A stretch of 23,766 nt of DNA from a virus (Duplodnaviria > Heunggongvirae > Uroviricota > Caudoviricetes), in IMG/VR virus record IMGVR_UViG_2585427763_000009. One strand, given 5' to 3'. Made by a program: the position numbers and the translations under genes. Positions 7,300 to 8,247 of the stretch are shown here, piece by piece (position 1 is the stretch's first letter; each line of letters starts with the position of its first letter). The notes under the pieces were generated by a model that was not told the origin of the DNA, made no database searches, and saw only the letters and a list, made by a program, of their open reading frames with translations.

Positions 7300-8247
7300 A
7301 TGAAGATATTTATTAGTTGGTCAGGTCAGGACAGCCTGGAGATAGCAAAAGTATTACGGGATTGGATACCGAATGTTATTCAAGTAGCTGAGCCGTACGT
7401 ATCAGCGGAAGATATTGATAAAGGCACTCGCTGGGCGACTGATATATCAAAGGAACTTGATGACTCTTCTTATGGGATTATTTGCCTTACAAAAAATAAT
7501 ATTAATGCACCGTGGATAAATTTTGAGGCGGGTGCTTTAGGTAAAAAGGTTGATAAGAGCCGGGTTAGTCCTTTCTTGTTTAAAATTAAACCATCTGAGA
7601 TAACAGGCCCAATATTACAATTCCAGTATACTCGTTCGGATGATAAGAACGATATTTTGAAGTTGATGTTGTCAATAAATAATCAAGCAGGATTTTTGAC
7701 TGAAGAACGCTTAACTAAAGCTTTCGAGCAATGGTGGCCAAGTTTAGAGCGTGAGTTAGATAACATTCAAGATATTAACCCTGTAGATAAAGATTCCACT
7801 AAAAAAACAAAAGGTGATTCGACTTCTGAGATACAAAATCTTTCCAAAATTGTTGAAAGTTTGCTGGATATTAGCCGAACAAATCACCAATTATTGCGTG
7901 ATCCAGCATCATTATTGCCAGAAGAATATGTTAGCAAAATAATAAACAGGGAAGGGCGTAAAGAAACTGTTTTAAAAATTGTAGCTTCTGATTTATTATC
8001 CATGCATCATTCACTAATTCGTGTAAAAAGAAGATTTATTCGTCGTGGTATTGATGAAACATCTAGGAGCGAGTTAATTGAATCATTAAATAAAATGATA
8101 ATGGATTGTTCTAGAGTAATCGCTCACTTAGATAATTATTGTGGGGCTTCATCAAACAATATGTTCAATAGTGCGCTTAGATTGCGGACCAGAAATTTAA
8201 TTGACATGATGGATGAGGAGGATGCAGAACGGGATGAAATGGAATAA
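7300..8247 (+). CDS. TIR-domain protein (N-terminal TIR-like fold ~aa 1-150, C-terminal helical domain of unknown function; 315 aa)
   Basis: N-terminus [11 protein letters not shown] (bacterial TIR beta-A strand pattern) and [24 protein letters not shown] (TIR S-x-W-x-x-x-E pattern, candidate catalytic Glu76 at nt 7525-7527); AT-rich; motif-level recognition only, no search. Confidence 0.6.
   Translation: [315 protein letters not shown]

Follow-up and report, generated by a model that had tools for sequence, protein, structure and literature searches.

We analysed a 23,766-nucleotide stretch of DNA from a virus of the Caudoviricetes (IMG/VR record IMGVR_UViG_2585427763_000009; hereafter the window), a defective P2-like prophage of E. 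coli, and within it the gene at positions 7300-8247 (+ strand; ATG at 7300, TAA at 8245-8247). This gene encodes a protein of 315 amino acids with an N-terminal TIR domain and a helical C-terminal region. Sequence identity makes it almost certain that it is the TIR component of the anti-phage system published from Escherichia phage P2_AC1 as '2TM + 1TM + TIR' (PMC9122126). The locus itself is already known and experimentally validated, and is effectively the type example of a catalogued system. Its published grouping into one three-gene system is not supported by our comparison of related loci. On the simplest reading of these sequences the 'three-gene system' would comprise two independently mobile cassettes, a 2TM-1TM pair and a TIR gene, recently stacked in one P2 hotspot. 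As an explanation of the whole we somewhat favour a self-contained single-gene sensor-effector TIR NADase, with the upstream pair as a separate unit.

Identity with the published AC1 locus

The TIR gene lies in an island (5779-10198) of low GC content (~34-45% versus 52-59% in the flanks), which is bounded by the P2-type replication gene A (3457-5778, Pfam Phage_GPA) and the portal gene (10199-11233, minus strand). This interval between gpA and portal is a variable defence hotspot of P2-like phages, and the AC1 locus occupies the same site. Over 4.2 kb the island shares 99.6% DNA identity with phage P2_AC1 (OV192280). At the protein level the TIR protein is identical to its AC1 counterpart (CAH0786487) at 314 of 315 residues, the sole substitution being Ala283, which is a valine in AC1, and identity extends to all 185 residues of the 1TM protein and to 124 of 126 residues of the 2TM protein. 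The genes for these two membrane proteins form the cassette next to the TIR gene. 2TM comes first (6108-6482, + strand, 124 amino acids; PADLOC 2TM-TIR PDLC02978, E=2e-58) and is followed by 1TM (6503-7060, + strand, 185 amino acids; PADLOC 1TM-TIR PDLC02977, E=3e-75), in whose product hydropathy analysis indicates an N-terminal transmembrane (TM) segment and, at residues 131-149, another hydrophobic stretch. In the N-terminal Gly-Lys repeat of 2TM (GKGKG..., 6120-6140), the window and AC1 differ in length by a single GK/KG unit (6 nt); the longer form is present in some E. coli genomes, and the difference looks like repeat slippage.

The TIR protein matches the PADLOC model TIR-TM PDLC03016 with E=2.3e-118, residues 1-295 aligning to profile positions 1-286 of 293. 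With this match, the adjacent 2TM and 1TM genes on the same strand and the identity to the type locus, the window contains a member of the catalogued system Rst_2TM_1TM_TIR. A lysogen of AC1 resists phages lambda and LF82_P8, and a clone of the insert reproduces this resistance and protects against P2 as well (Rousset 2022, PMC9122126). The locus was cloned as one insert (pFD240), which maps to window positions ~5843-8633 based on the insert and primer sequences in Table S2 of that paper, and the published hypothesis for its action is a relay modelled on Thoeris (PMC9122126). A 2024 survey preprint lists Rst_2TM_1TM_TIR, which was not detected in the survey's genome set. Our search of the literature on the AC1 system found no dissection of the three genes, no biochemistry and no later mechanistic study.

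The triple arrangement is present in 14 of 5,426 complete E. coli genomes, in phage AC1 and in two IMG/VR contigs, all of them at least 99% identical and belonging to one lineage. Of the 14 island-bearing genomes, that of E. coli GCEC19 (NZ_CP137765.1) has an IS21-like insertion sequence (IS), ISEc12 (istA/istB), inserted in the island.

Separation of the TIR gene from the 2TM-1TM pair

Directly after the stop codon of 1TM, folding reveals an intrinsic terminator consisting of a hairpin and a T-run (7059-7089, + strand). The hairpin is a perfect 12-bp stem between A and T runs with a folding energy of -17.8 kcal/mol (z=-5.1), and none of 200 shuffled sequences was as stable. A gap of 240 nt then precedes the TIR start codon; the spacing between 2TM and 1TM is 20 nt. 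This strong terminator sets the 2TM-1TM unit apart from the TIR gene. The terminator is also the point at which homology to a TIR-less P2-like prophage of E. coli (L093), spanning 6018-7088, comes to an end. In a Serratia locus (L094) and in a lambdoid prophage (L092) the 1TM gene is again followed by a hairpin and a T-run, of other sequence. A consensus promoter and terminator scan of the island returned sites no more frequently than in shuffled sequence and missed the 1TM hairpin.

On the far side of the gap, a region that travels with the TIR gene (7205-7299, + strand) putatively serves its expression. These ~100 nt 5' of the TIR start are conserved in two loci that harbour TIR only, from Klebsiella (L088) and E. 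coli (L095), where the TIR gene directly follows gpA. The region contains a promoter-like element, TTGACG (7256-7261) and TTTAAT (7280-7285) separated by an 18-nt spacer, and a TTGAYG-N18-TTTAAT-like arrangement is found across both TIR-only loci. Based on its sequence, this element may be the promoter of the TIR gene.

The membrane protein genes are strictly paired. In IMG/VR, 1TM homologues were found at 23 loci, the most distant at 22% identity; every one has a 2TM homologue immediately upstream, and the TIR gene is absent from 21 of the 23, the remaining two being identical to AC1. Homologues of 1TM in L096 (85%), L093 (81%) and L094 (72%) are accompanied by 2TM in the same P2 hotspot and lack TIR. 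In the lambdoid prophage L092 the pair, at 53% and 62% identity, is found between the lysis and terminase genes, again without TIR. The 1TM family is small and confined to Enterobacterales. In Pfam and NCBIfam nothing above threshold was obtained for 2TM, 1TM or the proteins encoded downstream in the island, and PADLOC gave no ThsA-type match. From these sequence comparisons the 2TM-1TM pair may be an uncatalogued two-gene system of Enterobacterales prophages. Two further observations concern this module. The 2TM and 1TM proteins diverge together, down to ~22-39% identity (L092-L094, L096 and L099-L121), and the module, with a terminator behind it in every case, occupies two kinds of site, the gpA-portal hotspot of P2-like phages and, in lambdoid prophages, the moron site between the lysis and terminase genes.

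Relatives of the TIR gene occur without these partners. We compiled 92 other loci of the TIR family, comprising 80 from a genome scan (L008-L087) and 12 from individual look-ups, which cover Anaerolineales, Bacteroides, Clostridia, Planctomycetota, Actinomycetota, Cyanobacteria and Methanosarcina. No 2TM or 1TM homologue was detected in any of the 92 within the flanks examined, using tblastn at E<=10 for 85 loci and E<=1e-3 or the gene list for the rest. Over 80 relatives from different phyla are monocistronic: among 87 loci, a same-strand neighbour within 40 nt is present upstream in only 3 and downstream in only 4. Nor do they have a neighbour in common, as any one neighbour family appears in at most 5 of the 85 TIR loci that were clustered. 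The genes for the closest diverged TIR proteins, from E. coli (L095, 78%) and Klebsiella (L088, 74%), each occupy the gpA-portal interval by themselves. Relatives also stand alone in Serratia (61%), where the gene is flanked by housekeeping regulators, in Providencia (52%), where it adjoins a type I restriction gene accompanied by an integrase and IS elements, and in Enterobacter (53%), at the edge of a prophage. Standalone relatives match the PADLOC TIR-TM model as well as the window protein does, with E values of 1e-110 to 1e-121.

The immediate surroundings of two standalone genes resemble defence islands. In Providencia (L090) the TIR-family gene adjoins a type I restriction subunit gene and a gene with a pP_pnuc domain, and in Burkholderia ambifaria (L005; 2535-4463 and 5001-5825) it is located 540 nt 3' of an OLD-family ATPase/TOPRIM gene (AAA_15 and OLD-like_TOPRIM).

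It is because of the terminator, the standalone TIR relatives at the hotspot, the strict 2TM-1TM pairing in loci without TIR and the 92 partnerless TIR loci that we read the locus as two independent cassettes. In this comparative evidence neither co-inheritance nor a shared operon unites the three genes into one unit. Thus, TIR is likely to act autonomously from the TM genes.

The TIR domain and its WxxxE motif

An earlier note on this DNA, made from the letters alone, had taken the N-terminal ~150 residues of the protein for a TIR domain with Glu76 as its candidate catalytic glutamate. The span that it gave for the open reading frame (ORF) and its position for the Glu76 codon are both exact, and the domain assignment is borne out for residues 1-155 (7300-7764, + strand) by profile matches, structure prediction and conservation. 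Residues 3-113 match Pfam TIR_2 at E=4.7e-10, the score of 40.5 bits lying above the curated cut-off of 28. An AlphaFold2 model based on an alignment of 47 homologues (mean predicted local distance difference test, pLDDT, of 75.8) shows strands alternating with helices in residues 1-155, followed by a disordered linker and long helices. A non-TIR fold in residues 1-150 would have spoken against the assignment; the model and its structural neighbours instead give a TIR fold. The top matches in a Foldseek search of the PDB are TIR domains throughout, with E values from 3e-3 to 5e-2 and target-normalised TM-scores of at most 0.65, and include SPARTA TIR-APAZ (8i87, the best match), TcpB/BtpA, PdTIR (3h16), AbTir (8g83 and 7uwg) and BtTir (7uxr). 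Homologues of the protein form more than 1,500 clusters at E<=1e-3, from bacteria and at least one archaeon, and given this number the TIR signal in the sequence is far above chance. The gene product falls in PHROG 13899.

The candidate active site comprises the WxxxE motif W72-I-N-F-E76 (7513-7527, + strand), in which Trp72 is encoded by TGG at 7513-7515 and Glu76 by GAG at 7525-7527. The motif aligns with W204-TNY-E208 of AbTir (numbered by position in 7uwg_A), both with the family profile and with the single sequence. Trp72 and Glu76 are invariant among the 47 close homologues and in 82 of 82 relatives from many phyla. PMC11374754 defines this motif and calls E208 and W204 of AbTir critical. 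Glu76, which the earlier note had placed correctly, is thus the WxxxE glutamate, and alignment and conservation make it very probable that it is catalytic.

The C-terminal region

The TIR domain is connected by a variable linker (residues 156-173; 7765-7818, + strand), with pLDDT below 50 at residues 165-173 and a commonest-residue frequency of 0.17, to a three-helix region in the AlphaFold2 models (residues ~174-284; 7819-8151, + strand). An acidic tail follows (residues 285-315; 8152-8244, + strand; pLDDT ~50, family occupancy 0.46), in which residues 291-315 comprise nine Asp and Glu versus four Lys and Arg. Modelled alone (pLDDT 77.6), the C-terminus forms three long helices at residues ~173-200, 208-249 and 253-281 before the tail of low confidence. 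The segment containing the first helix (176-212) harbours the conserved residues Glu186, Leu189, Arg193, Asn195, Leu199, Arg200, Pro202, Pro207 and Tyr210.

As the earlier note had it, this part of the protein is helical and carries no recognised motif: it has no Pfam match and no significant neighbour in the PDB by Foldseek, run also on the isolated C-terminus, where the best hits are generic helical hairpins (E=0.9). Among PDB sequences, the C-terminal half of the family profile matched nothing but helical bundles designed de novo, at an E value of 0.002 that is compositional, and the TIR domain matched AbTir weakly. Hydropathy analysis of the whole TIR protein indicates no signal peptide and no TM segment.

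A C-terminal extension of 130-200 amino acids is present throughout the family, whose members are 257-376 amino acids long. Measured against the window protein, median identity in the 82 relatives falls from 58% for the TIR domain to 33% for the first helix and 10% for the remainder. A conserved enzymatic head with a fast-diverging tail is the pattern expected, at the level of sequence, of an effector fused to a module for specificity or regulation. The gradient fits, and does not prove, the role that the earlier note suggested for the C-terminus, that of a sensor or oligomerisation module.

Other features of the island and the prophage

All five ORFs of the island fall in PHROGs of unknown function. 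The two downstream of the TIR gene form a third separable cassette in the same hotspot (8792-8998 and 9001-9918, both + strand). The first is contained in an ORF of 94 amino acids (8714-8998), for which the most likely start is the TTG at 8792, just after an AAGGAG; this would yield a 68-amino-acid lipoprotein precursor with a lipobox, MKRKLICVMAFWGALLAGC|NES. Starting 3 nt after this gene, the second encodes a protein of 305 amino acids with an N-terminal TM helix. Searches of Pfam, PADLOC and NCBIfam gave no match for either protein, which belong to PHROGs 32041 and 21267 (function unknown). The same pair is found without the TIR and TM genes in the P2-like hotspot of E. coli MS 16-3, where PGAP calls the small gene at 68 amino acids. 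The pair lies outside the published AC1 clone and is a candidate superinfection-exclusion or defence pair.

The P2-like prophage that carries the island is defective, and in this it differs from AC1. An intact relative (L001) is collinear with the window up to 12055, a point within the terminase ATPase gene; a remnant ORF at 11233-12042 (minus strand) keeps only the Terminase_6C part of that gene. The deletion junction is near 12053, and the lysozyme/lysB/lysC region follows. About 5 kb of head and terminase genes are gone: the terminase gene has lost its 5' half, and the genes for scaffold, capsid, small terminase, head completion and holin are missing. Inside the terminase remnant there is a tandem array (11365-11757) of a 63-nt unit in 6.2 copies with 99% matches, which is in frame (21 codons); the intact relative has ~1.2 copies of this unit. 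Further ORFs of low GC content that have no Pfam match are located between the tail genes S and V (14447-15232 and 15232-15618, both minus strand) and after the tail-fibre genes (20540-21133, + strand). They probably mark more moron or variable loci in this P2-like prophage.

Discussion

Proposed action of the TIR protein

Taken together, we propose that the N-terminus acts as a TIR enzyme of the WxxxE class that cleaves NAD+ through Glu76, its catalytic residue, and that the gene would be transcribed from its own promoter region. The fast-evolving helical C-terminus may hold the TIR domains inactive or sense a phage component. Upon infection the TIR domains would assemble, as in other TIR NADases, and the assembled domains would cleave NAD+, leading to abortive infection. 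In this proposal the upstream 2TM-1TM pair would be a separate membrane module that is adjacent by chance, and not a downstream effector. TIR activity triggered by assembly is known for SARM1, AbTir filaments and SPARTA. The parts of this scheme differ in how firmly we hold them. The sequences show identity with the AC1 locus, the TIR fold, the invariant motif, the transcriptional separation of the two units and their independent distribution; that the protein is an NADase and defends autonomously, what triggers it and what its C-terminus does are inferred, and NAD+ depletion as the effector step, which is drawn by analogy, is a tentative assignment to which we give slightly less than even weight.

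The closest functional parallels would be SPARTA TIR-APAZ, the TIR-STING and TIR-SAVED effectors of CBASS, Pycsar TIR and SARM1, with which the protein would share NAD+ consumption switched by oligomerisation. It differs from them in its sensor, which would be ~110 amino acids of helices with no known fold, and not an APAZ/Ago, STING, SAVED or cNMP-binding domain. By analogy, the protein probably works in the manner of the NAD+-depleting TIR effectors found in SPARTA, CBASS and Pycsar, its regulatory domain being helical and unclassified. Its nearest solved structures, AbTir, TcpC, BtpA/TcpB, PdTIR and BtTir, share the WxxxE motif and the combination of a TIR domain with an adjoining helical region. 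In the AbTir/TcpC/BtpA group, however, the domain order is reversed, as the TIR domain is N-terminal here, sequence similarity is very weak (E ~0.2-0.7 versus PDB sequences), and the function is interference with host immunity rather than phage defence.

Thoeris is a further point of comparison, since both involve a TIR protein with a catalytic glutamate, a candidate one here, in an anti-phage context. We rejected an assignment to Thoeris: there is no ThsB-type (PF08937) and no PADLOC Ths match, the protein matching only Pfam TIR_2, PADLOC TIR-TM and, weakly, PDC-S66. Among the neighbours no gene with a SLOG or Macro domain, as a Thoeris effector, was found, nor is there a conserved partner gene across the TIR family.

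Points that weigh against an autonomous NADase

Several observations count against this proposal. In each of the 14 E. coli genomes with this TIR allele the three genes occur together, and all 14 belong to the single lineage described above. The resistance conferred by the cloned insert could require all three genes or stem from the membrane pair alone. The promoter-like element upstream of TIR is weak, was not called by the consensus scan and would leave a very short leader. The structural matches to TIR domains are only moderately significant, and the AlphaFold2 model is poor near residues 77-80. Oligomerisation, NAD+ depletion and abortive infection enter the proposal as inferred steps. Finally, the invariant Trp72 would suit a signalling role, as an invariant tryptophan in the WxxxE motif has been reported as typical of TIRs that produce isomers of cyclic ADP-ribose (cADPR), i.e. 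signals. Given this correlation a signalling product is possible, but the family has no conserved gene for a receiver.

Alternative explanations

In the published relay, which resembles Thoeris, the TIR protein senses the infection and makes an NAD+-derived nucleotide messenger that activates 2TM and 1TM, which kill the cell, so that the three genes constitute one system. Thoeris-type systems offer a precedent for membrane effectors driven by a TIR signal. In favour of the relay, the three genes lie side by side in one orientation, were cloned and validated jointly (PMC9122126) and are defined as a three-gene system by both DefenseFinder and PADLOC, and Trp72 is linked to TIRs producing cADPR isomers. 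Against this, separate occurrences of the cassettes far outnumber joint ones, with TIR alone at the very same hotspot in its two closest diverged relatives (78% and 74%), 21 of 23 2TM-1TM loci devoid of TIR and no TM partners in the 92 other TIR loci. A strong terminator lies between the units, and 2TM and 1TM have no ligand-binding domain recognisable in Pfam, NCBIfam or as a ThsA-type PADLOC match. The triple arrangement itself is limited to one lineage of at least 99% identity. We consider the relay unlikely.

A second explanation treats TIR as a passenger in the published phenotype and holds that 2TM-1TM, by superinfection exclusion or abortive infection (Abi), protects against lambda, LF82_P8 and P2, with TIR acting on other phages or having no role in defence. 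The strict linkage of 2TM and 1TM at moron and defence sites of P2-like and lambdoid prophages makes a phage-exclusion function of their own plausible, and the published clone is undissected. Strong purifying selection on the TIR family, with its catalytic motif intact, speaks against a passenger. So does the occurrence of TIR genes alone at the same hotspot elsewhere, and close to genes for type I restriction and for an ATPase of the OLD family, which fits an active defence gene. To this explanation we assign a small probability, below that of the relay.

That the protein is instead a virulence factor like TcpC or BtpA, interfering with animal Toll-like receptor signalling, would agree with its location on a prophage in E. 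coli of human and animal hosts and with TcpB/BtpA among the Foldseek matches, but is very improbable and was rejected on family distribution, as relatives at ~50% identity live in free-living or anaerobic environmental bacteria and an archaeon (Anaerolineales, Planctomycetota, Geothrix and Methanosarcina), the protein has neither a signal peptide nor a TM segment, and this exact locus has a shown anti-phage phenotype.

Implications for the TIR family

Returning to the autonomous TIR NADase, the locus is already catalogued and validated, and its value is corrective rather than one of discovery. If TIR acts alone, the database definition is wrong, and one rarely detected three-gene system becomes two systems, one of which would be a widespread family of single-gene TIR proteins that current annotation ignores. 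In its broadest form, a proposition that we regard as evenly balanced, there would be a large cross-phylum family of monocistronic TIR immune proteins that is missed by catalogues demanding two unrelated TM genes, and the published system would reflect chance stacking. If true, the protein would offer a minimal model for the off/on control of a TIR NADase, consisting of a TIR domain and ~110 amino acids of helices.

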